This document shows positions 5,578 to 25,557 of a stretch of DNA of 64,000 nucleotides, piece after piece (within the stretch, counting starts at the first letter, position 1; every line of letters begins with the position of its first letter). Source of the stretch: a bacterium (lineage in GTDB: Bacteria; Patescibacteriota; Andersenbacteria; UBA10190); the NCBI GenBank assembly GCA_043811915.1, contig JBDRMS010000001.1:14499-78498 (forward strand), given 5' to 3'. Made by a program: the position numbers and the translations under genes. A model generated the notes under the pieces. The model made no database searches. It saw nothing but the letters and a program-made list of their open reading frames with translations, and was not told the origin of the DNA.

Positions 5578-5625
5578 CAGCCCGATGTGGATAATTACTA
5601 TGATTTCCGAAGGAGGTGAGCGAAT

Positions 5626-7100: not shown

Positions 7101-7143
7101 GATATCAATATAATAATAATGCTTTTGATGCATTATATTAAAT

Positions 7144-7719: not shown

Positions 7720-7720
7720 A

Positions 7721-9478: not shown

Positions 9479-9516
9479 TCCTTTCTAAATCCGCGGCTAA
9501 CAGGACCGGCTTAGAG

Positions 9517-9589
9517 CAGGGGTATCAGGACTCGAACCTGAAACGGCGGTTTTGGAGACCGCAATGATGGCCAATTTCACCATACCCCC
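9517..9589 (-). tRNA. tRNA-Trp (anticodon CCA)
   Basis: Manual cloverleaf: acceptor GGGGGTA/TACCCCT, anticodon loop CTCCAAA, T-loop TTCGAGT; no encoded CCA. Confidence 0.85.
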
Positions 9590-9613
9590 GTATTCAAAAG
9601 TATATCACTTCTT

Positions 9614-9778
9614 TTATTTTTTGCCTTTTTCGGCGTGCGCCTGGTGCTGGCGACACTTTTTGCAAAACTTTTTTAATTCCAATTTATGGCCGTCCTGGCG
9701 CCTTAAGTTGCGGCTGGTGTGGTAGTTGAACGACTTGCATTTGGTGCACTGAAGGCGAATCAAAGTATCTTGGCTCAT
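9614..9778 (-). CDS. rpmG: 50S ribosomal protein L33
   Basis: 54 aa MSQDTLIRLQCTKCKSFNYHTSRNLRRQDGHKLELKKFCKKCRQHQAHAEKGKK with two CxxC pairs; below ORF-track length cutoff. Confidence 0.85.
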   Translation of the reverse strand: MSQDTLIRLQCTKCKSFNYHTSRNLRRQDGHKLELKKFCKKCRQHQAHAEKGKK

Positions 9779-9820
9779 ATGGCTGTGAATATACGTTACG
9801 GGAGCGTTTTTGTCCAGAAA

Positions 9821-11287
9821 TTAATATTCTTCCTTGAGAATCCACTGTTCCAGTTTTTCTTCCCATTCATAGAGGCGCAGGGGTTTGGGTTCGGCCAGTC
9901 CCCCACCCTGGGTTTTTACCCATTCACCGGAAACTTCTTCAAAGTAAGCAGCGACAGACCACTCGGGATGAATGGCGTCTTTGACGGTAAGCAAGAGGCG
10001 CTTGCTAGTGCCGGTGCCGTCGCGATAGTCAACATACACAGTATTGGGTTTATCAGTGATGGTGAGACGTTTTTGTTGAACATTGGTTTGATGAACTATG
10101 TCGGATAATTTTTTCTCAATAAAGGCGGCTAACTGGTCATCGTCCAGTACTTGCATAAGGCCGGCGACACTGCCTGACTGATCGGCCTCCGCTTCAACAT
10201 GCACCAGGTGAGTCCGTTGACCAAAATCTGACACCTCATAATTCAGGTCAGCTATGTTGCCTCGTTCGATATTGAGAGCGAAGAGGCGGGTAGAGGTTTG
10301 TCTTAATTGGCTGGCAAAGATAGCAAAATTGTTTTGGTTATCGGTGTGGATTGATAAAAGCTTACCGGAATGTCGGGCGATTTGTTGCTGGGTTGATCCG
10401 TCAAACAGCCAAAAGGTAAAGTCCTGGCTTCCTTGAGTGACAAAAAGCAACTTGTTGTCATCCAGCCATTGCAAGTACGGCAAGCCGCCACGGACGACGA
10501 GGGTGAGGGGCGGCCGATCCTGGGAAGTGATAACCAGTTTGCTGCGGCCAAGAAAAGTGGGTTCGGTCAGGGCTAGTGATTGGCCGGTTAGGCTGATGTC
10601 CATAACGCCATGGTCGGCGATATCTTTTAATTTATCCCAGTCAAGCTCGCTGAAACGAAGAGCAATACCGGGAGGCTGGGTTGATATAACATTTAGTTTT
10701 CTATCATCGCCGACAAACCAAAGATGGCTGGATGCTTTATTCCAGCGAATCCTGGTGGCGATGCCGTTTTGAACCAGTTTTTCGGCCAACAGTTTTGTGC
10801 CACTCTGTTCGGCATCATAAACCCAAAGTTCAGTCAGTCGTTCCTCGGGCTGGTCAATATTATCCAACCAATAGGCAACCTTATTGTTATCGGGGCTGAT
10901 GATGAGATCCCGGAAAGCAATGAGCGGCGTCTTGTCTGCGATAACCTGGGACTGCCCGCTATTTATCCAGGTGCGATATAGGCTATCCTCGATGTAGTGA
11001 TACCAGGATTGACCATCGGTGACGGCGTTAGTCTTGTCGGAGGGAGGCGGAGTCAGGTTTTGACAATGTTGCTGATGACAGGAAACGAGACGGCGATCCG
11101 TGGCTTGCGTCTGAAGTAATACCACGTCAAAAGCCGGGGTAGCTTGTTGTGCAATGGGTTGGATTGTTGTTTCCGGTTGATTGTCAGGATTATTGGATTT
11201 AATACGGCGAGCAACAACAAAAAGTCCGGCAACTAATGTAACGAGAAGAACGCCCAAGAAAAGCGAGCGGCCGAGGCTGGAATTCAT
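9821..11287 (-). CDS. Membrane-anchored protein with beta-propeller-like (TolB/WD40-like) repeats
   Basis: Start taken at ATG 11287 or 11302 (ORF-track start 11389 overlaps tRNA-Thr); N-terminal TM LFLGVLLVTLVAGLFVV then large extracytoplasmic domain. Confidence 0.5.
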   Translation of the reverse strand: MNSSLGRSLFLGVLLVTLVAGLFVVARRIKSNNPDNQPETTIQPIAQQATPAFDVVLLQTQATDRRLVSCHQQHCQNLTPPPSDKTNAVTDGQSWYHYIEDSLYRTWINSGQSQVIADKTPLIAFRDLIISPDNNKVAYWLDNIDQPEERLTELWVYDAEQSGTKLLAEKLVQNGIATRIRWNKASSHLWFVGDDRKLNVISTQPPGIALRFSELDWDKLKDIADHGVMDISLTGQSLALTEPTFLGRSKLVITSQDRPPLTLVVRGGLPYLQWLDDNKLLFVTQGSQDFTFWLFDGSTQQQIARHSGKLLSIHTDNQNNFAIFASQLRQTSTRLFALNIERGNIADLNYEVSDFGQRTHLVHVEAEADQSGSVAGLMQVLDDDQLAAFIEKKLSDIVHQTNVQQKRLTITDKPNTVYVDYRDGTGTSKRLLLTVKDAIHPEWSVAAYFEEVSGEWVKTQGGGLAEPKPLRLYEWEEKLEQWILKEEY

Positions 11288-11308
11288 ACTTTCATTATAC
11301 ATTTGAGC

Positions 11309-11383
11309 TGGAGCCGACGGGGAGGATTGAACTCCCGACCTAATCCTTACCATGGATTCGCTCTGCCACTGAGCTACGTCGGC
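11309..11383 (-). tRNA. tRNA-Thr (anticodon GGT), CCA encoded
   Basis: Acceptor GCCGACG/CGTCGGC, anticodon loop ATGGTAA, T-loop TTCAATC, 3' CCA. Confidence 0.85.
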
Positions 11384-11399
11384 TGGCAATGGTGATAAA

Positions 11400-12539
11400 T
11401 TAACTTTTTGTTAGGAGATTGTCGAGCTCGGATTTTTTAGCAGCGACGTCTGGTTGAGCAAAATGGTCGCGAGCGGGCTTGAGAAGTTGGATTAATTCTT
11501 TGGCTGCGGCGGATTTGAGATCCATGGGATGGATGTCGCCGGCGGCGTAGGCCTGTTCAAGTTCCTGATATGAAGTAAATTCTGCTCCCCCGCCGTGTTC
11601 GGGCTTGCGCTCGATACAGAATGGCTTTTGCCTGTCCCAGAAAAGAATATGGCCTATCCAGTTGAGGATGGGATTAAATTTAATTTCTTTTTCCGGACAG
11701 AAAGCCTTGTTGATTTTGTGTTGAATTTCTTCTTTGGAATCGTGAACCCAAATAGCGGAATTGGGTTTCGACTTGCTCATTTTCATTTCCATAATGGCAT
11801 CACGCTGGTCTGTTCCTTCTGGAACGGGCCAGGTGACTGGCTTTTGCAAGCCTGTAAGGAGAGGATGATGTAGAGCTATTGGCTTGTCCTTATTGGTTAT
11901 TTTGTCACCAAAGAAAGTCTGTATGTTATCAGAGACATCTCTCATTATTACATGGGCCTTTCTTTGATCCATACCAGCATGCACAATATCAATATTTTGG
12001 TAAAAAATATCAGCTACCTGCATGGCAGGGTAGGATAATTTTGCCAAATCAATCTTTTCATCTTCTTTACGTCCCATGATTGTGATACTGCGTTTCATTC
12101 GTCCTAAGGTGACATTTTGACTTATTTTTACTACTAGGTCGCGATAGTACAACGTGTCTTTAGCATACCAGTCAGTGGCCAGGCGAAATTCCACCTGGTT
12201 AGGGTCAAGGCCAACGCATAGCATACTAGCCCTCATCGCCTCGGTAAAATAGCCTTTGCCTATTCTGGCGGCAGTTTCCCTTGTGCCATCAAGTTTATCG
12301 TTTATGGCCGTGTGCCAGTCGGCCAGCCAGACGGTACATTTGACGCCAAGATCAGTTAAGTCCTTCATCACCAGGGCGCTCATAATCCCCTGCCCCAGAT
12401 GAACATAACCGGAGATTTCGAAGCCGATGTAATGAGTTAGGATATCACTGGATGCAAGGCGCTGGCGAAATTCATCTTCGGTGATTATTTCGGCGCTATT
12501 TTTGACAAGGCGCTCAATAATTTTTTCCCGATCGGACAT
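11400..12539 (-). CDS. tyrS: Tyrosyl-tRNA synthetase, archaeal/eukaryotic type
   Basis: 379 aa from ATG 12539; HIGH-like THYIGFEISGYVHLGQG, KMSKS, YPAMQVADIFY, HPMDLKSAAAKELIQLLKPAR closely parallel M. jannaschii TyrRS (recalled). Confidence 0.85.
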   Translation of the reverse strand: MSDREKIIERLVKNSAEIITEDEFRQRLASSDILTHYIGFEISGYVHLGQGIMSALVMKDLTDLGVKCTVWLADWHTAINDKLDGTRETAARIGKGYFTEAMRASMLCVGLDPNQVEFRLATDWYAKDTLYYRDLVVKISQNVTLGRMKRSITIMGRKEDEKIDLAKLSYPAMQVADIFYQNIDIVHAGMDQRKAHVIMRDVSDNIQTFFGDKITNKDKPIALHHPLLTGLQKPVTWPVPEGTDQRDAIMEMKMSKSKPNSAIWVHDSKEEIQHKINKAFCPEKEIKFNPILNWIGHILFWDRQKPFCIERKPEHGGGAEFTSYQELEQAYAAGDIHPMDLKSAAAKELIQLLKPARDHFAQPDVAAKKSELDNLLTKS

Positions 12540-13181: not shown

Positions 13182-13253
13182 GCCAGCTTAGCTCAGTGGC
13201 AGAGCAGGACTTTTGTAAAGTTCAGGCCGTCGGTTCGAATCCGACAGCTGGCT
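13182..13253 (+). tRNA. tRNA-Thr (anticodon TGT)
   Basis: Acceptor GCCAGCT/AGCTGGC, D-loop AGTGGCA, anticodon loop TTTGTAA, T-loop TTCGAAT. Confidence 0.85.
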
Positions 13254-13373
13254 CTGGAAGCAAATATATCCAGCGGTGGCCCCACGTCGCTAAAGCTATG
13301 CGGGGCAATTGCATTGGATTGATCTGAAGGCTAGTTTGTTCTTTCGTAGTTAAGATGCTAATCATTGTTTTTA

Positions 13374-13446
13374 CCAGCGGTGGCAGAACGGCTTATGCAA
13401 CGGTCTGTAAAACCGTACCAAGTAGGTTCAACTCCTACCCGCTGGA
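13374..13446 (+). tRNA. tRNA-Tyr (anticodon GTA), archaeal-like: C1:G72, 5-nt variable loop, A73
   Basis: Acceptor CCAGCGG/CCGCTGG, anticodon stem ACGGT/ACCGT with loop CTGTAAA, variable ACCAA, T-arm GTAGG-TTCAACT-CCTAC. Confidence 0.8.
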
Positions 13447-14943
13447 CCTAGATATTATTGCAGCTTCTACTTTTTCGCGTTTGGCTGAAACAGACGTAAA
13501 TATTTGCATGAGGAGGGAAATTTGGTGGTTCGACAAAGACTTGCCATCATATTCTATACCCGCAGGATAGAGAAAGTGTTCGAACCGCACCTTTTTACTT
13601 ACGTCTTTTAAATCTTCCCAACTTCTAAGAGGATTTTTTAGAGCTTCAAATGCGATTGTCACTATTTGCTCGAAGTCGTCTTGCTCTGACTGATGTTCGG
13701 ATTGTAATAACTCTAAAGCTTTAATCTTGCCTTTCAACTCTTTTACTTGAGCTATAAAGTCTTCATCAGTATACAAGTGCGGGTTTCGGCGTTTCTCTGT
13801 AAGTAAGTTAGCTTTTTCCTGCTGCAGATTGTCCAGCTCTCGACTCACGACCTTTTGGTCTTTACGATAGTCTTTCAGCCTCTCTTGCCAGCGCTCCAAT
13901 AGAATTTCTTTCATAATCGGGAACATGGATAGTTTTGGCTTAAGCTCTTTTAGCTTTCCTTTGAAGTCTGTTTCCATGTTGTCCTTCTTTGTGTTTTTAG
14001 CTAAAGGACATTTCGACGGATAACGATGGTGATAGTAGGGATGTCTTTCTCCGTTGCGGCTACGGGGGGAGGAAGCGGTTAGACGTTCACCGCAGAGTGA
14101 GCAATGGATTAAGCCGCGCAAAGGAAATAAGGGGTTAATAATGCTCCGGGTTGGCGAACTGTGAGCATTCTGCTCATTAATTGCCTGGCACCTATACCAT
14201 AAATCTTTGTTTACCAGTGGCTTGTGGTTGCCCCATATTTCCATGCCATAGGACTTCATTAAGCCCATGTAAAAAGAATTTTTGATGACGTGGTGGACAT
14301 TTTGCTCTCTGAGCTTACGTCCTTGTCTACTACGGTAGCCTCGACTGTTCATCCCATTAGCAATACGTTTGAAAGTCCAGCCATCAGCTCGTTTCTCAAA
14401 AGCCCATTTGATTATCGGAGACATCTCATTCAGAACCGCCCGGCTTCGCTTGTCTCTGCCCCGTACCATGTCATAGCCAGGTGGCGGGGTAGATACCCAA
14501 TATCCCTCACTGAATCGTGCCACCAGCCCATTACGGCACCGCTCACCGCGAATTAAGTTGTCGTATTCGGCAAACGCTCCTAACATGTTTCGCTGTAATT
14601 TACCGGCCGGAGTATCGTCCACATTCTCTGTGGCGGAACGCAGGCCAACTCCCGCCTCCTGAAGCGTCCTGATAGCGAAAAGCTGGTTCTCAAGGTTGCG
14701 GGATAGTCGGTCCACCTTGTAGACAACAATAGCCTTTATCTTGCTGTCCCCGACATATTCTAGGAGCTTTTGAAACTCCGGACGGTTTAGTGTCTTGGCT
14801 GACACCCCTTCCTCTCGAAACACTTTGGCTACGGTAAACCCTTCACGCCCAGCGTATTCCCGGCACTGTTTCTCTTGGGTGTCTAAGGATGTTCCATCTA
14901 CTTGTGACTGATCTGATACCCGGACATAAATAACACATTTCAT
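13435..14943 (-). CDS. Large serine recombinase (resolvase/invertase N-terminal domain + recombinase domain + zinc ribbon + coiled coil)
   Basis: VIYVRVSDQSQ...DGTSLDTQ catalytic-Ser N-terminus, VVYKVDRLSRN, CxxC zinc-ribbon (HCSLCGERL), C-terminal coiled-coil; 3' 12 nt overlap tRNA-Tyr. Confidence 0.85.
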   Translation of the reverse strand: MKCVIYVRVSDQSQVDGTSLDTQEKQCREYAGREGFTVAKVFREEGVSAKTLNRPEFQKLLEYVGDSKIKAIVVYKVDRLSRNLENQLFAIRTLQEAGVGLRSATENVDDTPAGKLQRNMLGAFAEYDNLIRGERCRNGLVARFSEGYWVSTPPPGYDMVRGRDKRSRAVLNEMSPIIKWAFEKRADGWTFKRIANGMNSRGYRSRQGRKLREQNVHHVIKNSFYMGLMKSYGMEIWGNHKPLVNKDLWYRCQAINEQNAHSSPTRSIINPLFPLRGLIHCSLCGERLTASSPRSRNGERHPYYHHRYPSKCPLAKNTKKDNMETDFKGKLKELKPKLSMFPIMKEILLERWQERLKDYRKDQKVVSRELDNLQQEKANLLTEKRRNPHLYTDEDFIAQVKELKGKIKALELLQSEHQSEQDDFEQIVTIAFEALKNPLRSWEDLKDVSKKVRFEHFLYPAGIEYDGKSLSNHQISLLMQIFTSVSAKREKVEAAIISRSSG

Positions 14944-14965
14944 ATTTTTATTATACTTTAATTTA

Positions 14966-16369
14966 CTAATGCGTCCTCACGTTCATCTTTTCCTCAGTTT
15001 GGCCAGTTTGGCCAGTTTTGAGGTCATGAACTGGTGTAACTGAGGAAACTGAGTCTTGGCTAAGTGTGTTATCTACCCCATATTGGACCGACAAACGCTT
15101 CACTTGTTTTGCATTCCAGGGAATAGCCGCAGAGCCATCTGATGTTTTCCAGTGAGCTGTAGCTTTTTCTCTAAGCCCTAGTGCAGTCAACATTGAGCCT
15201 ATTCTCTTGGGCGAATAGTGGTATTTTTCAGGGGTGCCATCGTTCATCTCCTCTGTAATTCTTTTCAACGATAACACACCATCAAATACTTCATTTTCTA
15301 GATGCAATAAAACTGCGACCAGTTTACCGGCTAGTGTTTCGGATCGGCGATACACTGCATCTTTCTCTAATGAGGAAATATATTCTAATGCCTTGACGTG
15401 TGACTCAGGCTTCATGGAAATGATTATTTGCATAAGAGGTCGCATAATATCACCTAATCGACGTTTAGTGGGTTTAGGTATATCTGGTAGTGGTGTATCC
15501 ATATTGGCTGCACGATAAGCTACTAGTCGCTCACGCATTGGTAGTCCATGCTCAGGTCGCACGTCGTCTTCAAATTCCCGCTCTGTATCCTGCATAATCA
15601 CAGTGACACATCTAGTGTCTAACACTTCATCAAGTTCTGTATTAGTAGCAATGACCGTCGGTCCAAATACTTGATAATACTTTGTGTCTTTAAAATCCCC
15701 ACGCTCAGGATTTAATACTCTCGGAACCTTGCCGCCTTTCTCAAAACGGTTCAAAAATAAATCAGTACAACCATTTTTTTCTACCACATCCAGGAATTTA
15801 CTTATATCAAAGAACAAACTTGCACTACATAGCTCAGCCATACGGAATATAAATGGCTCCCGGATGCTGACAATGTGCACTCCCCGATAAGCAGCGTAAA
15901 TCATGCCTTTGCCAGTTCTTGATTTTCCTCGCTCAGGCACAGCATAAAAAGCCATCTCTGGAGAATATTCAAATTCTTCTTGCCTATATGTGTGAATTGT
16001 CCATGCGGCAATTAGCAGATAAAGTGAATCAGGCAAGTCAGAAATATTGCGATGATACTCAACTACATCATCAAAAAGCTGCTCGTTAGTTTTTACTCCC
16101 AACTCTAGAAATTTACTGTATTCCTTTAGGACCTCCTCGTAGCGGGGTAGTTTCCATGGTAACTGGTCTATAGAAGGCGGATAGTGAATATTGTCACCAG
16201 CCCGATGGCTTTTTCTAACAATCAAATCCTGACCACTCTTAAGTAGGTAGTGTGGTTGATTTTTGTACTCGACAATATCTACTAGACCAGGAAGTACAGC
16301 CTTATATGACTTTTTATTTTGGCTAGAATGTTCTTTATCAACTAGCACTGCCTCTATGTCTTTATCCAT
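14966..16369 (-). CDS. P-loop NTPase, phage/plasmid replication-associated (primase-helicase/VapE-like), putative
   Basis: 467 aa; Walker A-like AVPERGKS; GGAGGA SD; translationally coupled to the upstream gene (8-nt overlap). Confidence 0.45.
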   Translation of the reverse strand: MDKDIEAVLVDKEHSSQNKKSYKAVLPGLVDIVEYKNQPHYLLKSGQDLIVRKSHRAGDNIHYPPSIDQLPWKLPRYEEVLKEYSKFLELGVKTNEQLFDDVVEYHRNISDLPDSLYLLIAAWTIHTYRQEEFEYSPEMAFYAVPERGKSRTGKGMIYAAYRGVHIVSIREPFIFRMAELCSASLFFDISKFLDVVEKNGCTDLFLNRFEKGGKVPRVLNPERGDFKDTKYYQVFGPTVIATNTELDEVLDTRCVTVIMQDTEREFEDDVRPEHGLPMRERLVAYRAANMDTPLPDIPKPTKRRLGDIMRPLMQIIISMKPESHVKALEYISSLEKDAVYRRSETLAGKLVAVLLHLENEVFDGVLSLKRITEEMNDGTPEKYHYSPKRIGSMLTALGLREKATAHWKTSDGSAAIPWNAKQVKRLSVQYGVDNTLSQDSVSSVTPVHDLKTGQTGQTEEKMNVRTH

Positions 16370-16835
16370 ATATTTCCTCCAATTTTCTTATTAGTCTTTT
16401 GCACCTATAGCGCTTGTATTTCTCAGCTTCCAACATCCGCTCATATAAGCCCCTACCAAAGCCGGATAAGTGCTTTGACTTAGTTAGAATTTTTTGAGTA
16501 TTGCTTGACCACTTCTTTGATAGCCAGTAGTCATTTGCAATGTGTTTTTGGGCTGCCTGAATCAGTGCCCTAGGCATTGCGTCAGGAGCTGGCCAACAGA
16601 CACGGGCTTTGTAGTCTTTGGTAATTCCTACAGTGATATCCGGGTGTATTTGCATAGCGATTGACACAGCACTCCAGTTGTTAGTTTTCTCGCAGCGTTT
16701 CTCAATAAGACCGGTTATGTACCTACACATACAACGATAATTGTCTTGTTTGTGTTTGGTTGCCCTGGTATTATTGTTTGTATAAGAGTGATTCCTAGTC
16801 GGGGTCACTTTTTTTGTTATTGAACTATTGCTCAT
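16362..16835 (-). CDS. Hypothetical basic, Cys-containing protein
   Basis: 157 aa, Lys/Arg-rich, CMCRY...C; overlaps downstream gene by 8 nt. Confidence 0.35.
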   Translation of the reverse strand: MSNSSITKKVTPTRNHSYTNNNTRATKHKQDNYRCMCRYITGLIEKRCEKTNNWSAVSIAMQIHPDITVGITKDYKARVCWPAPDAMPRALIQAAQKHIANDYWLSKKWSSNTQKILTKSKHLSGFGRGLYERMLEAEKYKRYRCKRLIRKLEEIYG

Positions 16836-16980
16836 GTGGTGTTTTCTCTCTTTCTTTCCAAGTAGATATCAATTACCAAATCAGCCAACTCATAGCACTG
16901 ACTAAGTAGGCTCGACAAGTCTTGGTCACTTATTTGTTGCTCCTCGCTGGGAAGCATAGCCCGGGCTTTTTCCAGAGTTA

Positions 16981-17235
16981 TCATAGACCCCGCTCTCTCA
17001 AACGGCTAAAAACTATGTCCTTGCATGTCCTTATGGCATCGCTGAAGTCCTTCGCGTTTACAATTGCTCTGCGAGTGTAGTAATCATTAGCAAGTGCCTT
17101 GCATGGGATGGCTTGGAATATAAAAACCACATCATGCCCATCCTTTTCAGTACCAAGAAAAGACTCGCTGTGCTTGGAATACAAAAAACTAGACTCGTAG
17201 AGATCCCTAGTTTTGTGGGTAGTAGTAATTTCCAT
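16981..17235 (-). CDS. Hypothetical protein
   Basis: 84-aa ORF in same orientation as neighbours; no recognisable motif. Confidence 0.3.
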   Translation of the reverse strand: MEITTTHKTRDLYESSFLYSKHSESFLGTEKDGHDVVFIFQAIPCKALANDYYTRRAIVNAKDFSDAIRTCKDIVFSRLRERGL

Positions 17236-17313
17236 ACCAAAAGTATCCTTAAGTTAAGGATTGCTTGATTATGCCTAGCTGTGAACGACACTAACTGATT
17301 TTACTTAGTGTTC

Positions 17314-18024
17314 CTATGACCGTTTGTGTTTTTTACGTGTACGATTGCGAATTTTTGAAACAATATCTGGATCGCACGCTTCTTGTGGGAATTCTTCTCT
17401 GGCAACTCGTGCAATTTCCTCATTAGTCACTTCTGGGTTCTCTCGGTCTATTTTTAATATATATGCGTTACGTTTAGCTCGAGGACTCTTCCTTGTCTTT
17501 TTCCAGTGCTTTGGTGGCATGAATCGTTGCCAGCCCATTATCAGCTTAAGATGTACTGAAATACAGTCTTTAATCTCATTACTTGAGGCGTCAGCTGCGA
17601 CTTGGATTTGGATCGGGAAGTTTTCGAGGTGAGATTTTAAACGATAATCATCGTCTTTCATATGTTGCGCGGCGATTTCATTTGCATATTCCATATAAGG
17701 AAATTCAACAATACACGCATCAAATATTGAATAATCCTTAACGTGACCATCCTGTATGAATTGAATTACTGGGCCATTAATCGGTAGTCCGTGCTCTTTA
17801 GCAAGTTCATAGATAATCTTCTCAATCTTATTGGTTATGCCCTTTTGTTCGATTATGAGTTTTTTAATGCCATTGACCCTGTCTATAAAGTCTGGATCGT
17901 TCATTAATTCCTCAAAATAGAGGCGTAGGTGTTCTTTCCTTTTTGATTCTCGAAAAACTGATTCCATAATCTCAATCTCAATAATCTTTACTTTACTATC
18001 ACCCCCTATTCGGGTGGTATGCAA
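17314..18024 (-). CDS. Hypothetical protein with basic C-terminal HTH-like region
   Basis: 236 aa; C-terminus KRNAYILKIDRENPEVTNEEIARVAREEF...KIRNRTRKKHKRS. Confidence 0.35.
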   Translation of the reverse strand: MHTTRIGGDSKVKIIEIEIMESVFRESKRKEHLRLYFEELMNDPDFIDRVNGIKKLIIEQKGITNKIEKIIYELAKEHGLPINGPVIQFIQDGHVKDYSIFDACIVEFPYMEYANEIAAQHMKDDDYRLKSHLENFPIQIQVAADASSNEIKDCISVHLKLIMGWQRFMPPKHWKKTRKSPRAKRNAYILKIDRENPEVTNEEIARVAREEFPQEACDPDIVSKIRNRTRKKHKRS

Positions 18025-18112
18025 ATAAATTGGACAAATTAGCTTTAATGGGGTACAACGTAGGCATAATTCACTAGCCTAAACTACGCCTTGGCGCAGC
18101 ATGGCATTAAAT

Positions 18113-18153
18113 CCTCAAGGATACTGAACCCATCGTTCAGCACTTCCTTGAGG
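18113..18153. repeat. Nested inverted repeat (outer CCTCAAGGA/TCCTTGAGG, inner CTGAAC-ccatc-GTTCAG)
   Basis: Perfect 9-bp outer stem and 6-bp inner stem read directly in the non-coding gap 18025-18248. Confidence 0.5.
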
Positions 18154-18248
18154 TCATATAGGGAAACCTATGTGGGTAATCGAAAGATTATCGCTGGCGG
18201 TGGGCTTTGTGTTTGCTGGCAGCCCGTAACTACCTTAATGCTCTAACT

Positions 18249-18725
18249 ATGATGATTTATAAGAATTTAATAAAAATAAGTTCAAGCATATTGTTGTCTC
18301 TTATTTTCATCGTTGCCTTAACGTTTGTGGCTGACGCAGGTCAAGGTTGTTGCTCTTGGCATGGCGGGCAGAGCTACTGTGATACATCGTCGGGCCGATG
18401 GGTATGCAATGATGGCACCTATAGTCCTAGTTGTATGTGCGCTGTTCCAAGACCAGTACCGCAGCCAATTGCTCAAGAAGCCTGTTCACCCTATTTATTT
18501 TGTCCCCCAAACTATCCATATACTTTACTGAATGGCGGAATGATATATAACTACCAAGTTCCGTATGTAGTTGAGTTTGTCTTTAACGATGTTTACGGAC
18601 ATAAACCAAACCAGGGAGAAAGTGCTTATTGGAAGCGTAGGTTGCGTACAGATAAAAGTACTGTCAGTGCCTTATTAAATACGATGCGCTACTGGAAAAG
18701 CAAAAAAAATTCACCGGTGTTATAA
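18249..18725 (+). CDS. Secreted Cys-rich protein with C-terminal DVYGHK...YWK.R.RTDK module
   Basis: ATG 18249 (ORF-track start is a TTG); signal peptide MMIYKNLIKISSSILLSLIFIVALTFVADA; about 9 Cys; C-terminal module shared with next gene. Confidence 0.5.
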   Translation: MMIYKNLIKISSSILLSLIFIVALTFVADAGQGCCSWHGGQSYCDTSSGRWVCNDGTYSPSCMCAVPRPVPQPIAQEACSPYLFCPPNYPYTLLNGGMIYNYQVPYVVEFVFNDVYGHKPNQGESAYWKRRLRTDKSTVSALLNTMRYWKSKKNSPVL

Positions 18726-18741
18726 TCTAATATAAATTGCT

Positions 18742-19458
18742 ATGAAAAAACTACTTATTATCGTTTTGGCAGGTTTGCTAATAGCCCCCTCGGCATATGC
18801 CGAGTTTAGAGTGCTGCCATTTTCTTATTCTACTCCATATATTCCTTATAACCCTACTCCAAGAATAGCACCCAGCGTAACGCTACCCCTTATTCCACCT
18901 CCTATTACAACAAAACCAGTCGCAAGAGTACCCGTAACTCCAGTGGACGTTACTCCTTTCGATGAAGCTAGGGCTAAGCTCTTTGCAGACTGGGCTGAAA
19001 CAAACAGAGTAAGTGCGGAACGTTGGGCTGAAAAAGATAGATTAGCGAAAGAACAGCAGGCTGCAAAAGTAGTTCCTGAAGTACCCAATTACTTAGTCCC
19101 TTGGGTAATAGGGCAGATATTCAGCGATGTATATGGACATAAAATAACTCCTTCAGAAAGCACCTACTGGAAAAATCGAATGCGTACGGATAAACCCACC
19201 ATTGCAAGTCTTCAAGGCGCAATGTATTGGCATAAATCTCATGGCTCAACTGGTGTAACTGTCTCTCAAGTTGCGGGAGCTACAATGAGCTCTACTGATT
19301 TAGTTGGCCAAATTAACTCTTTGTTCCGTTCTGTCTACGAACGTAACCCCTCTATATCTGAAAACAAATACTGGCTAACACGTATTGCAGATAAGCCTAC
19401 AGAGGAAATGATGCTTGGTGCAATGATATTTCATAAGTTAAATAACATTAGTCACTAA
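18742..19458 (+). CDS. Secreted Pro-rich protein with two copies of a ~45-aa module (DUF4214-like)
   Basis: Signal peptide MKKLLIIVLAGLLIAPSAYA; repeats IFSDVYGHKITPSESTYWKNRMRTDKPTIASLQGAMYWHKS and INSLFRSVYERNPSISENKYWLTRIADKPTEEMMLGAMIFHKL. Confidence 0.55.
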   Translation: MKKLLIIVLAGLLIAPSAYAEFRVLPFSYSTPYIPYNPTPRIAPSVTLPLIPPPITTKPVARVPVTPVDVTPFDEARAKLFADWAETNRVSAERWAEKDRLAKEQQAAKVVPEVPNYLVPWVIGQIFSDVYGHKITPSESTYWKNRMRTDKPTIASLQGAMYWHKSHGSTGVTVSQVAGATMSSTDLVGQINSLFRSVYERNPSISENKYWLTRIADKPTEEMMLGAMIFHKLNNISH

Positions 19459-19469
19459 GGGCAACAAAA

Positions 19470-19886
19470 TCACTTCTTAACATTTTGTTGCATCGCATTA
19501 AAAATATTTACTTGTGAAGACCCTTTATCAATGCCCAATAACCGCCCAAAAACAAGAAAATACTTAAATCTTGTAACGTAGTCCGGCACTTCCCTGTAAT
19601 AAACACTCTTTGTTGCTCCAAGCCCGTCTGAGAGAGCCCTCATATATGTTTCCGCAGTAAACCCCCCAACGGCCAAAAGGTCAGAAACACTAACTTTTGC
19701 TAACTGACGAGCACCTAATACCCTCGCAGACTGTTTTGTTACATGAGGATGAAGTTTTATATACGCTTTGCTGGCATTGCCTCCATTCTCAAACCACTCA
19801 TTAAAAAACAAGGCCAGCGCCTTATCATCTCGAAAGACTTCTGATAGGGTCCCCTGTGTTGGTTCTATCGCCTGAATATTGCCCAT
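19470..19886 (-). CDS. Phage terminase small subunit-like protein (Terminase_2-type HTH)
   Basis: ATG 19886 (ORF-track start is TTG); FFNEWFENGGNASKAYIKLHPHVTKQSARVLGARQL matches TerS N-terminal consensus (F..Y...GNat.A...AGYs.ktA...a.rLL); no large terminase nearby. Confidence 0.45.
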   Translation of the reverse strand: MGNIQAIEPTQGTLSEVFRDDKALALFFNEWFENGGNASKAYIKLHPHVTKQSARVLGARQLAKVSVSDLLAVGGFTAETYMRALSDGLGATKSVYYREVPDYVTRFKYFLVFGRLLGIDKGSSQVNIFNAMQQNVKK

Positions 19887-20129
19887 GTTTATATTTTGTC
19901 GAACATGAGGCTTGGTTTTCAACTCAGAGTCGCGTACCAGGTGTTCCAAACTTTAAGAAAAATCACAGCCGACTTACAACAACCACGCCAAAAGCACATA
20001 CTAAATAGTCATATTCCTATTCCAACAATCTCTTATCTGGTAACATAAACTTTCCTATCGCCGCCTCACAAGCAGCTTCATAGTTTTAATAGTTTTGACA
20101 CCAAGTGTTAAATCGTTACCACTATCCTC

Positions 20130-20333
20130 TTAACTGTTTTTGGCGTCCTCTTTCATTTGATTAGTTCCTTTACGCCAAAGATAGATGCCATTTATCACGA
20201 TCAATAAATAAATCAATGCACCGAAGATACTCCCTGAATCACTTTCGAAGGCACCAATAACACACCCAACAATCCCCAAGCCTCCAAGTACCACCATTGG
20301 CAACCCTACAATACGTCTCCAATTAGATTTCAT
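20130..20333 (-). CDS. Small membrane protein (2 TM)
   Basis: 67 aa, two hydrophobic helices, basic C-terminus. Confidence 0.3.
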   Translation of the reverse strand: MKSNWRRIVGLPMVVLGGLGIVGCVIGAFESDSGSIFGALIYLLIVINGIYLWRKGTNQMKEDAKNS

Positions 20334-20491
20334 GACATTACGGTAGCAGTCGCTTGATCAAGTTGCAACGATTACAAGCACAGCCGGGCTATAAGCCGCT
20401 GTTTGGGTTCGCCTTACAAGCAATCCATCTAACCCGTGTCGTTATTATCATTGCCTAGGATGTTTTCTAACTGCTAGACTTAATAAGGTTA

Positions 20492-21253
20492 ATGTCTATT
20501 GAAGATCACGTAGAAATCAAGCTTGATACCCTGAACGCAATATCTGCGCACGAGCATAAGCTAGTCGAAGCTGCACCTGAAAAGTATGGAGCTTATTGGG
20601 AGAATGCTGAGAAAAGTGTTATGGCGATTCAAACCTTTTCAGTGAAATATGAGCGAGAGGCTCTGGTCTCAATGTTTCTCCTGGTGGCAATGAATCAGTA
20701 TGCTTCCCTTGCTTTGTTGTCGGCTGCGAGAAAACATGCGGCGCAATCAGCGCTATGTTTTAGGTTTATGCTTGAAGCCGCAGTGCTTTCAGCGTATTCG
20801 CTTTTTGACGACCAAATGTCGCAGTTGTCTAAACCAGGTACCGCCCAATCTATAGTGGAGAAATTTATGAATCTTAAAGAATCGAAGAATATCAGAAAAA
20901 AAGCACATGCTTGGATTGAAGAAAGTTTTCCAACCCACTCTTCGCGTATCGAGGAGCTAAAAACAAAATATATAAACAAGATATATGCCCATGTAAATAT
21001 TCCTAACGTGATTTCTGCTGTACGCTCAGCTGAGAAGATTTCTGGTTCTTTGTTTTTCGACGCGGAGGATAGTTACGCAATAAAGCGATCTATGTGGGCT
21101 ATAACAGATGGCATTCTTTGCTCAATTGATTTAGTCTCAGCCTCATTCGCAAAAAGCAGTAAGGGGAAACTTGACCCGCGCGCACTTAGTAGGTTGTACA
21201 AAATCCAACAAGTCCACCTAAAGCTAAAAACGGAGTTGAAGAAAGGGCGATAA
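20492..21253 (+). CDS. Hypothetical all-alpha protein (unknown cargo)
   Basis: 253 aa ORF with ATG start; no motif recognised. Confidence 0.4.
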   Translation: MSIEDHVEIKLDTLNAISAHEHKLVEAAPEKYGAYWENAEKSVMAIQTFSVKYEREALVSMFLLVAMNQYASLALLSAARKHAAQSALCFRFMLEAAVLSAYSLFDDQMSQLSKPGTAQSIVEKFMNLKESKNIRKKAHAWIEESFPTHSSRIEELKTKYINKIYAHVNIPNVISAVRSAEKISGSLFFDAEDSYAIKRSMWAITDGILCSIDLVSASFAKSSKGKLDPRALSRLYKIQQVHLKLKTELKKGR

Positions 21254-21258
21254 GATGG

Positions 21259-21282
21259 TTTCAAACTCTTCCTACCTGCTGG
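21259..21282. repeat. Degenerate copy of tRNA-Tyr 3' end (candidate attR)
   Basis: TTCAAACTCTTCCTACCTGCTGG vs tRNA 3' GGTTCAACTCCTACCCGCTGG: 12/14 identical over the 3'-most 14 nt, partial match further 5' with indels. Confidence 0.3.
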
Positions 21283-21424
21283 GGTTGTAAGTAAAGCTAC
21301 GCGGGCTGAAATATCGCCGCCAGCGTCCTAACTTCTCCAAACAATTGGTCTATTATGCTATCTTTAGCGGTTCGACGTGATAATATAAGGGTGGACATTT
21401 TAAGGATTACAAATAATGGTGGCT

Positions 21425-21475
21425 GACCCCATTAACTGCCCCATTAACTGACCCATTAACTGACCCCATTAACCC
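21425..21475. repeat. Tandem repeat, 12-13 bp unit GACCCCATTAACT x4
   Basis: GACCCCATTAACT GCCCCATTAACT GACCCATTAACT GACCCCATTAACC read directly; 55-105 bp upstream of ORF 21531. Confidence 0.8.
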
Positions 21476-21530
21476 TAAAAACCGTACGGCAGTTGACAAG
21501 ATAAGGGGTTGTGTTGTATGTTCAGCGGTT

Positions 21531-21887
21531 ATGATTGAGAAACGTTCAATAGTACTGACCATCGTTGTTTTAGCCATGTTGTTTGCAGGTATGCTTTTGT
21601 ACTTGTTTACTTCCGGCGGGGGCTTGCCGCAAGCAAAAATTGCCATAAATCCTGAAGAGCCACAAGCAATGGAAGCAACGGACGCGCCGGAAGCGGAGAT
21701 AACGGCCGGGGTGACGGATGTGAGCGTAGTGAATGAAGCGAAGGATGAGGCTCTTGATGTATCACCAACTGCGGCCACGGGGGTAAAAGGCTATGTGATC
21801 ATGGCCGCGGGGCTGGCCGTGCTGATGGGGCTGATTGGTTTGATTACTGCCTGGCGGAAGTCTTCAGCTCGGCAAGTTGAGCTGTAA
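21531..21887 (+). CDS. Small acidic surface protein with N-terminal TM/signal and C-terminal sortase-like sorting signal (motif-hydrophobic-basic tail)
   Basis: C-terminus ...SPTAATGVKGYVIMAAGLAVLMGLIGLITAWRKSSARQVEL; competing minus-strand ORF 21407..21778 is low complexity. Confidence 0.4.
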   Translation: MIEKRSIVLTIVVLAMLFAGMLLYLFTSGGGLPQAKIAINPEEPQAMEATDAPEAEITAGVTDVSVVNEAKDEALDVSPTAATGVKGYVIMAAGLAVLMGLIGLITAWRKSSARQVEL

Positions 21888-22758
21888 GGGAATGTTGCAG
21901 AGGCAGGTTGTCCATGCGGCGAGCAATAGATAGTAGTCGTTTAATAATGACGACGTTGCTCGGGTCGGCGTCGTGAGCCTTTTTGAGTGCTTCCATGGCT
22001 TTGGTTAGCCTACCGGCCTTGTAGTTGGCGTAGCCCAGAGCGGCATAACACCCCTTGGTGTTTGGCTTAAGGCTAACTACTTGCTCAAACACTTCAGAGG
22101 CTTCACTCCAGTTATGGCGGCCCAGAGCGGCTTTGCCCAGCAGCATGTAGGCGTGCGTGTTCCTGGGATGCTTAGCCAGAAATGGAACCAGTGTTTTTTC
22201 GGCGCTTTGGTAACGACAAGCGCTTAGCTGCTGGCGGGCTGTATCGAGAGAAGTAGCTTTTGGTTTTTTGAAAAAAATCTTTTTGGCCAGGGTGGGTTTG
22301 GCGCTTGGTGTCAGGCTCACCGGCGGGGAGGAGACGGGCTTGGCAGAGACCGGTTTTTCTATCATGCGTAAGACCGGCCTGGTTTCTTTTGATGTAATTT
22401 TCTGGCTAATCTTCACCTGGCCGGCTTTCTCTTTAGCTTTATTGAGTGTGCGGCGAATTTTGGCCAGGTATTTGGTGGGTGGCTTGATAGTGGGAAGATT
22501 GCGCAGGGCAGCTATTTTTTCTTTAATTTGAAGTAGCAGCTGCTGGAGCGAGTGTCCAGCAACAGATAACCGATTTTTTATTACGTGAACACTTTTTTGA
22601 CTCGGTCCAAGTAACACGGCGAAGTCGCGAGTACTGGTGGTGCGGACGGCGGCGGCGAGATTTTGCCGATGCAACCTGGTCACTACTCGAGAAACAACGT
22701 AAATAGTCCCTCCGAGGGAGGCGAAGAATACCAGAGGAGGAAGGACATTGTATAGCAT
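21844..22758 (-). CDS. Membrane-anchored TPR-repeat protein
   Basis: ATG 22758 (GTG at 22764 alternative); N-terminal TM; C-terminal TPR-like helices (AYMLLGKAALGRHNWSEASEVFEQVVSLKPNTKGCYAALGYANYKAGRLTKAMEALKKA). Confidence 0.55.
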   Translation of the reverse strand: MLYNVLPPLVFFASLGGTIYVVSRVVTRLHRQNLAAAVRTTSTRDFAVLLGPSQKSVHVIKNRLSVAGHSLQQLLLQIKEKIAALRNLPTIKPPTKYLAKIRRTLNKAKEKAGQVKISQKITSKETRPVLRMIEKPVSAKPVSSPPVSLTPSAKPTLAKKIFFKKPKATSLDTARQQLSACRYQSAEKTLVPFLAKHPRNTHAYMLLGKAALGRHNWSEASEVFEQVVSLKPNTKGCYAALGYANYKAGRLTKAMEALKKAHDADPSNVVIIKRLLSIARRMDNLPLQHSLTAQLAELKTSARQ

Positions 22759-22839
22759 GCGCACTTGTTCACTGTCATCTTATCAAGAGTGAACTGCTCC
22801 GCCAAGAGGTTTAAGCGCGACTTATTAACAATTTTTCCC

Positions 22840-23424
22840 CTATATGGCTATACGAGTGAATTCGCCGATACTGATATTTTCGCCAAGTTCCTGAATAGCC
22901 TCTTTGATTAGATCTGCAACAGTTTTATTAGGATCTTTGACGAAGGGCTGGGTAAGCAAGGCTCTTTCGGAGCGGAACTTATTGAGTTTGCCGGCAACCA
23001 TTTTGATTTGAATCTCCTTCGGTTTGCCCGACTCTCTGGCTTGTTCTTCGGCGATGGCTTGTTCTTCGGCGATAGCTTGTTCAGAAATGTCATCGGGGCT
23101 AACGGCCACCGGGTCCATGGCGGCAATGTGCAGGGCAATACTATGAGCTAACTCCTGAAATTTACTGTTGCGGGCAACAAAGTCTGTTTCACACAAGAGT
23201 GTGACCAAAACGGCAATTTTACCGTTGCCGTGAGTATAGGAGGCGATTGTTCCTTCGCGGGTATCACGCTCGGCTTTTTTGGCAGCGCCGGCTATGCCCT
23301 TTTTTCGCAGGACAACAATAGCCTGTTCAATGTCGCCGTTGGTTTCCTGCAAGGCTTTCTGGCAGTCAACAATGCCGCAGCCGGTGCGGTTTCTTAATTC
23401 CTTAACTTGTTTTGGTCTAATCAT
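22840..23424 (-). CDS. tsf: Elongation factor Ts
   Basis: N-terminal UBA-like MIRPKQVKELRNRTGCGIVDCQKALQETNGDIEQAI; short-form EF-Ts. Confidence 0.9.
   Translation of the reverse strand: MIRPKQVKELRNRTGCGIVDCQKALQETNGDIEQAIVVLRKKGIAGAAKKAERDTREGTIASYTHGNGKIAVLVTLLCETDFVARNSKFQELAHSIALHIAAMDPVAVSPDDISEQAIAEEQAIAEEQARESGKPKEIQIKMVAGKLNKFRSERALLTQPFVKDPNKTVADLIKEAIQELGENISIGEFTRIAI
23040..23075. repeat. In-frame 18-bp tandem duplication inside tsf (encodes QAIAEE x2)
   Basis: CTTGTTCTTCGGCGATGG / CTTGTTCTTCGGCGATAG adjacent copies. Confidence 0.6.
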
Positions 23425-24128
23425 TTTGATGGGCGATTTTTAAGGATAGCTTTAGTTAACGTACCGACAATAAGATCTATGGAACGAATGGCGTCGTCAT
23501 TGGCCGGAATGGGATAATCGAGCAGTTCAGGGTCGGTGTTGGTGTCGGTAATACCAACAATCGGAATACCCACACGTTTAGCTTCACGCACGGCTAGTTT
23601 TTCATCATGAGCGCCAACGACGATAACGACGGCTGGCAGCTTGCGCAGATTTTTTATTCCTTCAAGAACCTCCTCCAGGCGTTCGATTTCCTTGGCATGG
23701 ACAGAGCGTTCTTTTTTGGTCATTTTTTCCATGGCCGGTGTTTCGGTCATGCCCTTGAGCTCATCCAGTTTTTCGATGCTTTTGAGGACGGTAGAAAAAT
23801 TAGTGAGCGTGCCGCCAAGCCAGCGCTGAGTAACATAGGGCTGGCCCACGCTTTCAGCGTACTTGCGGACAATGTCACGGGCCTGGCGCTTGGTGCCGAC
23901 AAAGAGAATTTCTTTATTAGCATCCTTGCTGACTTGATGAACAAATTCTACCGCTCTGGCCAGGGCGGTGTGGGTTTTTTCCAGGTCAATAATGGCCATG
24001 CGGTTGCGAAGCATGAAGACATAGCTGTCCATACGAGGGTTTTTCTTACTGCGTTCGTGACCGAAGTGAACCCCGGCTTCCAGCATGTCTATTAGCTTGG
24101 GAATTTGAACTGGTGTATTAGTGGCCAT
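23421..24128 (-). CDS. rpsB: 30S ribosomal protein S2
   Basis: MATNTPVQIPKLIDMLEAGVHFGHERSKKNPRM matches S2 N-terminus (AGVHFGHQTRRWNPKM); start at second in-frame ATG. Confidence 0.9.
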   Translation of the reverse strand: MATNTPVQIPKLIDMLEAGVHFGHERSKKNPRMDSYVFMLRNRMAIIDLEKTHTALARAVEFVHQVSKDANKEILFVGTKRQARDIVRKYAESVGQPYVTQRWLGGTLTNFSTVLKSIEKLDELKGMTETPAMEKMTKKERSVHAKEIERLEEVLEGIKNLRKLPAVVIVVGAHDEKLAVREAKRVGIPIVGITDTNTDPELLDYPIPANDDAIRSIDLIVGTLTKAILKNRPSK

Positions 24129-24191
24129 AATGAGGCATACCATAACCTAACTACTTGTAAAAAACAACTCTATTTACTATAATCAGCAGGC

Positions 24192-24467
24192 ATGAAAGCA
24201 AAAATACATCCTAAATACCACAAAAAGGCAAAAGCAGCGTGTTCCTGCGGCGTTAAGTTTGAAGTCGGCTCAACGGAAGAGAAGCTGGAAGTTGAAGTGT
24301 GCTCCAGTTGTCATCCTTTTTACACAGGCAAGCAAAAACTGGCTGACGTAGCAGGAAGAATAGACAAGTTCAAAAAACGCTTGTCTCAAGCCGAGAAGGC
24401 TGATAAAAATAAGAAGATAAAGAAAGAGCGAAAAAAAACCAGGAAGGATACTACCGTGAAGCTTTAG
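24192..24467 (+). CDS. rpmE: 50S ribosomal protein L31
   Basis: [28 protein letters not shown]...[13 protein letters not shown] matches L31 (CxxC...CxxCHPF). Confidence 0.9.
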
Positions 24468-24470
24468 CTG

Positions 24471-25550: not shown

Positions 25551-25557
25551 AGCCCAA

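Follow-up and report, generated by a model that had tools for sequence, protein, structure and literature searches.

A small integrative element at a tRNA-Tyr gene, with a serine recombinase gene split by integration and a LOOT RNA

In architecture, the element described here is closest to two kinds of satellite that use serine recombinases, the PLEs (elements resembling phage-inducible chromosomal islands) and the module-3 VEIMEs (integrative mobile elements that are encapsidated in virions), and to the staphylococcal cassette chromosome (SCC) elements, in which a Cch helicase is paired with a large serine recombinase (LSR). It occupies positions 13448-21396 (7,949 bp) of a 64-kb stretch of bacterial DNA (assembly GCA_043811915.1, contig JBDRMS010000001.1), called the window in its full length, and is bounded by two TGGAC cores at 13443-13447 and 21392-21396. 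We consider it probable that the element is an integrative, self-replicating episome whose LSR gene is split according to its state; transfer in helper capsids is the weakest step of this reading. The features of most interest, the division of the LSR gene by integration and the LOOT RNA, were both missed by a preliminary description of the locus. We consider the split gene and the linkage of LOOT to be new, the latter by comparison with the Rfam entry of this RNA.

PLEs are satellites that integrate with an LSR, encode their own replication initiator and carry no capsid genes. The window element is likewise integrated by an LSR, has its own replication gene and lacks capsid genes. PLEs differ in that they are about 18 kb long, insert in repeat elements rather than a tRNA gene and carry anti-ICP1 genes, and scans of Pfam, PHROGs, NCBIfam and PADLOC returned no PLE-specific homologue. 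SCC elements such as SCCmec share with the window element the pairing of an LSR with a Cch-type helicase. They reside in rlmH, span 20-60 kb and carry resistance cargo, whereas the window element lies at tRNA-Tyr and its recombinase scores 151 bits against a CcrB family cutoff of 900 (NCBIfam CcrB-like, E = 3.5e-44). It therefore has neither the Ccr recombinase nor the rlmH target of an SCC element, and we know of no split recombinase gene in SCC elements.

The preliminary description had called the locus a satellite resembling the phage-inducible chromosomal islands (PICIs). The likeness to PICIs and to Staphylococcus aureus pathogenicity islands (SaPIs) holds for the fold of the replication protein Rep, for the lone gene resembling a small terminase (TerS) and for site-specific integration, here at a tRNA gene; the element also has its own replication initiator/helicase, as PICIs do (Pri-Rep). 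Membership does not hold. PICIs have a tyrosine integrase, Stl/AlpA control, a size of 10-15 kb and capsid-redirecting genes, while the window element has an LSR and measures 7.95 kb, so that it departs from them in integrase type, control module and size. The only counterpart of the PICI packaging-hijack genes in the window is the remote TerS-like protein, which is undetected in several close relatives.

VEIMEs, in the excerpted text of PMC9618062, are small integrative elements with an integrase, primase/helicase-type genes, sometimes a lone TerS, no capsid genes and many unassigned open reading frames (ORFs), all of which resembles the window element. The same excerpts treat PLEs as the reference satellites with serine recombinases. 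VEIMEs are defined there by concatemers in virions and by marine plankton hosts (Eppley et al. 2022, PMC9618062), whereas the window element is known from sequence alone and its host is probably a bacterium of the candidate phyla radiation. The split recombinase, LOOT and the DUF4214 payload belong to the window element and go without mention in those excerpts.

Element boundaries and the split recombinase gene

The block is a discrete, foreign, site-specifically integrated mobile element at the 3' end of tRNA-Tyr. The features that define its ends and its recombinase gene are as follows.

13374-13448 (+): tRNA-Tyr (GTA), the integration target (ARAGORN; Rfam tRNA, 56.5 bits)
13443-13447: attL core TGGAC, comprising three bases at the end of the acceptor stem, the discriminator A and a following C
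13448-14943 (-): LSR, main coding part (Pfam, PHROGs, NCBIfam)
21297-21396 (-): detached 3' part of the LSR gene, 32 codons and a stop that continue the frame of 13448-14943 only in the circle; doubles as the P' arm of attP
21392-21396: attR core TGGAC, the true right end (Logan contig breaks; end of similarity to L001)
Predicted empty-site attB junction, reconstructed from the window: CTCCTACCCGCTGGACATTTTAAGGATTAC, ...GGTTCAACTCCTACCCGCTGGACATTTTAAGGATTACAAATAATGG
Predicted circular attP junction, reconstructed from the window: ATAATATAAGGGTGGACCTAGATATTATTGC, ...GTGATAATATAAGGGTGGACCTAGATATTATTGCAGC

Inside the block (13 to 21 kb) the G+C content is 0.39-0.43 with negative GC skew; in the flanks it is 0.47-0.49 with positive skew. 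This difference had been proposed as a check of foreign origin. The flanking genes are housekeeping genes (tyrosyl-tRNA synthetase (TyrRS), tsf, rpsB, rpmE, prfA, dnaE, thrS, gatB, gyrB, pheT, ligA and pilB). Pfam and PHROGs scans found no capsid, portal, large terminase, tail or lysis genes in the island and no phage structural genes elsewhere in the window. A complete prophage, which needs a structural module in or beside the island, is thus not present and does not continue into the flanks, and the claimed lack of large terminase, portal and capsid genes extends to the whole 64 kb.

The right end was located from assembly graph breaks and homology. An independent Logan assembly of the same sample (run SRR27458547), in which the identical helicase protein was recovered, holds the island as a separate contig of 8,004 bp (L007; window 13418-21421, 100% identity) and the right flank as another (L006; window 21392-25997). 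The two contigs overlap by exactly 30 bp, beginning at the right core at 21392, and the left end of L007 lies 30 bp outside the attL core. For the k=31 de Bruijn graph that underlies Logan contigs, k-1 equals 30 bp. Coexisting occupied and empty sites that share only TGGAC predict a unitig covering 13418-21421 and a flank starting at 21392, which are the breaks observed. An occupied site together with an excised circle alone predicts breaks at 13443 and 21396, and neither was seen. These breaks point to a site that is polymorphic for presence of the element, or to some other variant at that junction, with the crossover inside TGGAC. Similarity (blastn) to the related island on JGI contig Ga0118719_1001935 (L001) runs from 13374 to 16610, resumes only at 21304-21396 and ends at the right core. 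The preliminary description was therefore right about an integrated block at the tRNA-Tyr 3' end and wrong about its length (about 7.8 kb) and its right end at 21282. The degenerate tRNA-like stretch at about 21260-21284, which it took to mark that end, lies 110 nt inside the element, and neither a contig break nor the end of similarity to L001 coincides with it. A direct-repeat search of the window gave no att candidates, in keeping with integration by a serine recombinase.

Reconstruction gives a pseudo-palindromic attP, with ATAATAT and ATATTAT in exact register about the core and the centre of symmetry at the GG of TGGAC. This GG is likely the crossover dinucleotide. A GTYGAACC motif lies 21 nt from the core start in the attP half-site and 16 nt from it in the tRNA half-site, in the window and in the related islands L001 and L169. 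In the A118 family, according to the excerpted text of PMC3783163, the motif bound by the integrase zinc-ribbon domain is displaced 5 bp inward in attB, and the change from +21 to +16 matches this shift. The locus thus has the att anatomy of an LSR: a shared 5-bp core, a pseudo-palindrome and a 5-bp motif shift. The L001 island carries the core at each of its ends too (3359 and 12923, where its strand reads GTCCA), and GTCC is present at both ends of the L169 and L176 islands.

In the integrated state the LSR coding sequence (13435-14943, minus strand) encodes 502 amino acids. As claimed, it overlaps the tRNA: the last 12-14 nt lie within tRNA-Tyr, the frame crosses attL and the stop codon falls at 13435-13437 in the tRNA antisense, giving a protein that ends ...SRSSG*. 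Its domains are those of a serine integrase, with Resolvase at 3.8e-36 (124.8 bits), Recombinase at 1.9e-17 (63.8 bits), Zn_ribbon_recom at 22.2 bits, slightly below the Pfam cutoff, and a PHROGs match to the integrase family phrog_95 (5e-90). Joining 13448 to 21396, as in the circle, lengthens the ORF in frame to 531 amino acids. The added tail is STLILSRRTAKDSIIDQLFGEVRTLAAIFQPA, and the conserved tail of the 531-residue protein reads RRTAKDSIIDQLFGEVRTLAAIFQPA. The same joining is in frame in L001 (531 amino acids), L169 (537) and L176 (532). The joined L169 protein ends in a homologous tail, ...PRRTDKISLLDQLFGEVRTLAAIFQPA, and in L176, whose contig is 541 kb long, the tail is found 8.4 kb upstream of where the LSR begins. 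When the 32 tail codons of the window were compared with those of L001, 12 were identical, 14 differed synonymously and 6 non-synonymously, and only 2 of the non-synonymous changes fell in the last 26 codons. This synonymous excess indicates purifying selection on the reading frame of the tail.

A protein-database search with the 531-residue LSR recovered two relatives, P0278 (...SLQSLFGEIFELAAIR) and P0288 (...NQLITEIQRFAGVYDRSLIRAIS), in which a homologous tail is joined directly to the rest of the gene; many others terminate in tRNA-antisense peptides (...GIEP...). P0288 is encoded on a Logan contig of 6,860 bp whose ends overlap by 30 bp, which closes to a circle of 6.83 kb (L166), and P0278 on a 13,578-bp MEGAHIT k141 contig with a 141-bp terminal overlap, which closes to a circle of 13.4 kb (L167). 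At the core, right after ...SHLV, P0288 parts from P0286, P0287 and P0289, which are its integrated relatives. Public data thus hold both the circular and the integrated state of this recombinase family. The larger circle (ENA ERZ27252253, k141_4173358) carries an LSR that is 55% identical to that of the window and has an intact tail. It further encodes DUF5681, a D5_N/DUF5906 primase-helicase, two large unassigned proteins and a beta-helix protein resembling a tailspike, and lacks LOOT. Such a circle could be either a miniature phage or a satellite of larger size.

The truncated 502-residue LSR retains the catalytic, recombinase and zinc-ribbon/coiled-coil regions, and loss of the tail probably brings about a state-dependent change in activity, stability or partner binding. 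SSV1-type integrases are tyrosine recombinases whose gene is split near the N-terminus by integration. The mycobacteriophages BPs and Brujita also use a tyrosine recombinase and have integration-dependent immunity; in BPs, the gene truncated on integration is the repressor. In these systems, as in the window element, attP lies within a coding sequence of the element, so integration alters a protein and provides a built-in readout of state. In the window element, by contrast, the enzyme is a serine recombinase, and what it loses is a conserved peptide of about 30 residues at the C-terminus. To our knowledge, no serine recombinase has been described whose coding sequence is rearranged by its own reaction. 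An integrase of this kind would be a compact means of sensing the integrated versus the free state.

The split was demonstrated for the tRNA-Tyr/LOOT subfamily and the two circular relatives. When helicase-LSR loci further removed were searched by BLAST with the tail peptide, the output was noise only. The LSR frame runs into an antisense tRNA (Glu, Gly, Met, Val or Leu) in at least six further loci of the helicase-LSR type, which come from other phyla. Such loci are L057, L078, L039, L036, L073 and L038, in GTDB genomes that include Andersenbacteria and Daviesbacteria. Location of attP within the 3' end of an integrase gene may therefore be common, reaching far beyond the tRNA-Tyr subfamily. 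At the attR junction of the integrated element (21396-21398, minus strand) an ATG arises in frame with the detached tail and could give a 33-residue peptide (MSTLILSRRTAKD...). This ATG is probably fortuitous, as it is not conserved in L001.

The LOOT RNA and the exported proteins

A LOOT RNA precedes two genes for exported proteins on the plus strand.

18076-18192 (+): LOOT RNA (Rfam RF03000), full length, 78.1 bits, E = 5e-13
18207-18725 (+): exported protein; signal/anchor sequence, Cys-rich domain, single DUF4214-like module (ORF, profile scans)
18742-19458 (+): exported protein; signal peptide, Pro-rich region, two copies of the DUF4214-like module (weak Pfam DUF4214 match)

The inverted repeat at 18113-18153, which the preliminary description had read as capable of forming a cruciform, is the central hairpin of this RNA. 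The match is well above the Rfam gathering score of 46.4 and the helices are conserved. LOOT also occurs in L001, L005, L166, L169, L176, L111/L119 and the IMG/VR contig L174. In an alignment of the eight copies from mobile elements, 88.9% of cells can pair, as against 30-41% when the partners are slid, and 24/34 pairs show compensatory changes.

All eight copies lie in a mobile element or phage-like region, six of them with an LSR in the same element. The other two are L174, where a tyrosine-integrase fragment takes the place of an LSR, and L005, whose LSR-like match is weak and unconfirmed. LOOT was absent from 80 other loci of the helicase family, so the RNA and the helicase are not obligately linked. 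In 8/8 copies LOOT stands shortly upstream of, and in the same orientation as, a gene for a signal-peptide or membrane-anchored protein. LOOT is said to have been described by Weinberg and colleagues in 2017. Its Rfam entry is a small RNA gene; here it is always found in a mobile or phage-like context 5' of an exported-protein gene. This arrangement suggests that LOOT acts as a 5' leader of exported-protein genes, and gives an orphan RNA a context in mobile elements.

The two proteins behind LOOT had been described as secreted proteins with a common repeated module, and this module can now be related to DUF4214: the homologue in L166 reaches 28.7 bits, above the Pfam cutoff. A DUF4214-like module is common to the window, L001, L005, L166 and L169, in the gene after LOOT or the next one in the unit. 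Genes downstream of LOOT in L176 are uncharacterised and stand outside this count. In L119 the gene after LOOT encodes a membrane-anchored OB-fold protein, and in the inovirus-like L174 a secreted protein of 907 residues. The LOOT-led unit of exported DUF4214 proteins is the most conserved payload of the element family.

Two of these loci have unusual surroundings. L174 (IMGVR_UViG_2711768262_000001, LOOT at 1843-1957) holds the only true LOOT copy found in IMG/VR by pattern scan, in an inovirus-like block with a Zot-like P-loop protein, many small membrane proteins, the tyrosine-integrase fragment and the 907-residue signal-peptide protein. L119/L111 (JGI Ga0315284_10000279 and Ga0315288_10001058) is a tRNA-Tyr island of at least 12 kb with a distant LSR and LOOT. 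It encodes a Terminase_6C large terminase, a TerS-like protein with a helix-turn-helix (HTH), two DNA methylases and a type ISP restriction enzyme, and its LOOT lies upstream of the membrane-anchored protein, whose OB-fold is tRNA_anti-like.

Relatives at tRNA-Tyr and the remaining genes

A scan of JGI metagenome contigs gave 76 loci with the tRNA-Tyr 3' end. LSRs directly at this tRNA are 77% (L001), 85% (L169), 57% (L157, covered at the LSR 3' end only) and 46% (L176) identical to that of the window. Several more distant LSRs lie 0.5-2.5 kb from the tRNA-Tyr end, which makes the site an integration hotspot. The preliminary description had proposed presence or absence in related genomes as a check on mobility. 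L107 is syntenic on the left (TyrRS, 65% identical, a 143-residue ORF and tRNA-Tyr) and on the right (a tetratricopeptide repeat protein, 53%, then tsf, rpsB, rpmE and prfA), and has about 6 kb of unrelated genes between the two sides with no LSR or helicase. L001, L169 and L176 are full islands that occupy the same tRNA, with different cargo, so the content of the site is not fixed. An empty site from the same species was not found in the JGI metagenomes, where only more distant relatives occur. The elements of this family are small (6.8-9.9 kb) and found mainly at tRNA-Tyr.

An archaeal-type TyrRS (PRK08560; 11400-12704, minus strand) adjoins tRNA-Tyr, and the same TyrRS/tRNA cluster flanks the L001 and L176 islands. 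The window tRNA-Tyr has a C1-G72 pair and no long variable arm, and the genome also has bacterial tsf and prfA. Among bacteria, an archaeal-type TyrRS with such a tRNA-Tyr has been reported only in the candidate phyla radiation (CPR) (Mukai et al. 2017, PMC5370408). From this trait, the host is likely a member of the CPR. Mobile elements of CPR bacteria (Patescibacteria) are poorly charted and genetic tools for them are very few. The attP and attB of a serine integrase acting at a tRNA-Tyr end, resolved here to the base pair, offer a possible tool, as the syntenic hosts share the CPR-reported trait.

Two local observations concern this site. tRNA-Thr(TGT), next to tRNA-Tyr at 13182-13254, shares its strand in the window, as it does in L176 (11614-11688), and takes the opposite one in L001 (13273-13345), a difference that corresponds to a small local inversion beside the hotspot. 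The L176 island itself (ENA ERZ27336832 NODE_4, 541 kb; about 1603-11513) is 9.9 kb long with a split LSR and LOOT, and carries a 587-residue Peptidase_C14 (caspase-like) protein and a 584-residue neighbour, which could be a defence or abortive-infection module.

The other genes of the window element are listed below.

14966-16369 (-): MCM/Cch/SaPI-Rep-like AAA+ replicative helicase, 467 residues, P-loop AVPERGKSRTGKG; the fold is that of SaPI Rep and SCCmec Cch helicases
16362-16835 (-): 157-residue protein, 55% identical in L001; C-terminus like a DnaG-Zn-ribbon protein of L169
16832-16984 (-): 50-residue protein, 55% identical in L001 and 53% in L169
16981-17235 (-): 84-residue protein, at the position of an HTH_17 (excisionase/AlpA-like) gene of L169
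17314-18024 (-): 236-residue (or 217-residue) protein, first gene of the leftward operon (ORF)
19470-19949 (-): TerS-like protein, 138-159 residues, remote Terminase_2 relative (family-level profile evidence)
20130-20333 (-): small membrane protein, 55-67 residues, cargo (ORF)
20492-21253 (+): 253-residue cargo protein (no match in Pfam, PHROGs, NCBIfam, PADLOC)

The gene called a P-loop replication-type protein in the preliminary description thus belongs to the MCM/Cch/SaPI-Rep group. It has no primase domain, and a profile search of the PDB by sequence gave no match for it. The small ORFs noted earlier, of 157, 50 and 84 residues, are all present, and a further one of 236 residues has no match in Pfam, PHROGs, NCBIfam or PADLOC. 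From its resemblance to the L169 protein, the 157-residue protein is probably a replication accessory, and by position the 84-residue protein is a candidate directionality factor or regulator. No window ORF matched an HTH repressor or AlpA in Pfam and PHROGs (most ORFs also in NCBIfam and PADLOC), a result that leaves room for highly divergent regulators. The two ORFs to the right of the TerS-like gene, called unknown cargo in the preliminary description, are likewise unassigned here. Anti-phage cargo, which that description noted as frequent in such islands, was not found: PADLOC detected no defence system among the cargo ORFs.

Replication modules vary among the relatives, being an MCM-like helicase, a DnaG-Zn-ribbon protein with a 447-residue protein, or D5_N/DUF5906. 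Replication and TerS modules are interchangeable, and the recurrent features are the split LSR, LOOT and the exported, mostly DUF4214-type, protein genes.

Proposed life cycle and alternative readings

In the life cycle that we propose for this episome, the LSR would recombine the pseudo-palindromic attP with the tRNA-Tyr 3' end by a crossover in the shared TGGAC, leaving the tRNA intact. Because attP lies in the 3' end of the LSR gene, integration would detach 32 codons and yield the 502-residue protein ending in tRNA-antisense codons. Excision to a circle would restore the 531-residue LSR with its conserved tail, so that the isoforms would differ between the two states. The circle would be replicated with the help of the MCM/Cch/SaPI-Rep-like helicase, and the divergent LOOT-led unit would express the exported DUF4214-repeat proteins. 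For the route from cell to cell, the step on which the scheme is weakest, we favour packaging into helper-phage capsids directed by the TerS-like protein, as would be expected of a satellite of the PLE/VEIME type.

Several results weigh against this scheme. The empty site of the window element was inferred from contig breakpoints and not from attB/attP junction reads, and a tRNA 30-mer common to co-occurring species can also break a unitig, although the right-hand break is not explicable in this way. Circular forms were seen only for relatives, with LSRs 45-55% identical. No replication origin was identified and the element encodes no primase. The helicase family was absent from 50,697 phage and 72,556 plasmid records (tblastn), and a helicase profile scan of IMG/VR found one locus only; the helicase and LSR proteins, each used singly against IMG/VR, gave no match. 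For the transfer step, the element lacks a known helper phage, with none present in the window, and likewise a known pac site or capsid-interference gene; only the N-terminal HTH, a DNA-binding domain, is confidently TerS-like, and no TerS-like gene was detected by Pfam or the family HMM in the fully covered L166, L169 and L176 or in the partial L005. Its lack of detection in several relatives makes this an accessory gene and not a core one.

The TerS homolog of the preliminary description survives in part. The window protein matches Terminase_2 in the HTH region only, at 19.1 bits against a Pfam cutoff of 26.1. An exhaustive HMMER search collected 286 relatives. Terminase_2 was matched by 41/150 of those tested, the best at 1.7e-10, and the family profile matches SF6/SPP1-type TerS structures (E ~4e-4), whereas a three-sequence alignment gave no match in the PDB. 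Named matches in BFVD are mostly small terminases, all weak. The closest homologue lies in another LSR island beside a tRNA (L008), and L001 carries a different Terminase_2 gene (33.7 bits). On these profiles we conclude that the protein is a real, if remote, TerS relative, encoded by an accessory gene.

Satellite status is plausible, and the evidence for it is this accessory, remotely TerS-like gene. We advance only tentatively the stricter reading of a true PICI/PLE/VEIME-type satellite, in which a helper phage of the same host would induce excision and replication and the TerS-like protein would redirect the helper's large terminase, so that DNA of the element, probably in concatemers, enters helper capsids. 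An integrase, a SaPI-Rep-like helicase and a lone TerS-like gene without structural genes are what such a satellite would carry. Two related islands with different Terminase_2-type genes at the same end suggest selection for function, and LOOT stands beside TerL/TerS genes in L119 and in the inovirus-like IMG/VR contig. PLEs and module-3 VEIMEs use serine recombinases, and VEIMEs lack capsid genes and in some cases have TerS, as the excerpts of PMC9618062 state. The sub-threshold TerS match and the lack of a detected TerS-like gene in the relatives named above count against a true satellite, as do the missing helper and pac site and the near absence of the element from IMG/VR. Pfam and PHROGs scans also found no homologues of Stl, AlpA, Cpm, Ppi, Rpp, Sid or Psu.

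The same accessory status fits a phage-independent integrative plasmid that spreads by transformation, vesicles or contact, with the TerS-like protein as an HTH regulator or an excision or partition factor. This is doubtful, yet nearly as likely as the satellite route. The circular relatives L166 (6.83 kb) and L167 argue for it, as does the plasmid-like swapping of replication modules; the host encodes a PilB/ComGA-like pilus ATPase, and SCC elements pair an LSR and a Cch helicase without packaging genes. Against it, none of the genes for partition, mobilisation, a relaxase or conjugation was detected.

It is improbable that the element is a very small autonomous temperate virus, non-tailed and perhaps membrane-containing or filamentous, with the DUF4214 and membrane proteins as parts of a virion or egress apparatus. 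Signal-peptide or membrane proteins behind LOOT are indeed the most conserved payload, and in L174 LOOT precedes the 907-residue secreted protein in the company of a Zot-like ATPase and small membrane proteins. The window element, however, has no capsid, Zot-type ATPase, packaging ATPase or rolling-circle Rep in Pfam and PHROGs scans, DUF4214 is no known virion domain, and the 6.8-kb circular relative has still fewer genes.

A decayed prophage remnant or fixed, immobile island, to which the lack of structural genes and the shorter LSR of the integrated state might point, is very improbable, since every ORF is intact, the detached tail is under in-frame purifying selection, the assembly graph breaks exactly at the att cores, related circles exist, and site occupancy and cargo vary among relatives.

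Returning to the proposed episome, a bolder extension would make these islands the first satellites of CPR bacteria, with a new kind of state switch, in which the full-length LSR would come from the circle only and the chromosome would encode a tail-less isoform that differs in activity, stability or partner binding, and with LOOT serving the control of export-protein genes, replication or packaging and shared with helper viruses; we regard this combination as unlikely. If the satellite reading is true, phage parasitism reaches ultra-small symbiotic bacteria.

Two minor observations lie outside the element. Four tandem copies of a 12-13-nt unit, CCCCATTAACTGA, occupy 21423-21472, 27 nt beyond attR and upstream of a gene for a 118-residue membrane protein. 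At 57001-58000 the G+C content dips locally to 0.40 around a 217-residue ORF (57139-57792, minus strand), which could be another small foreign insertion.

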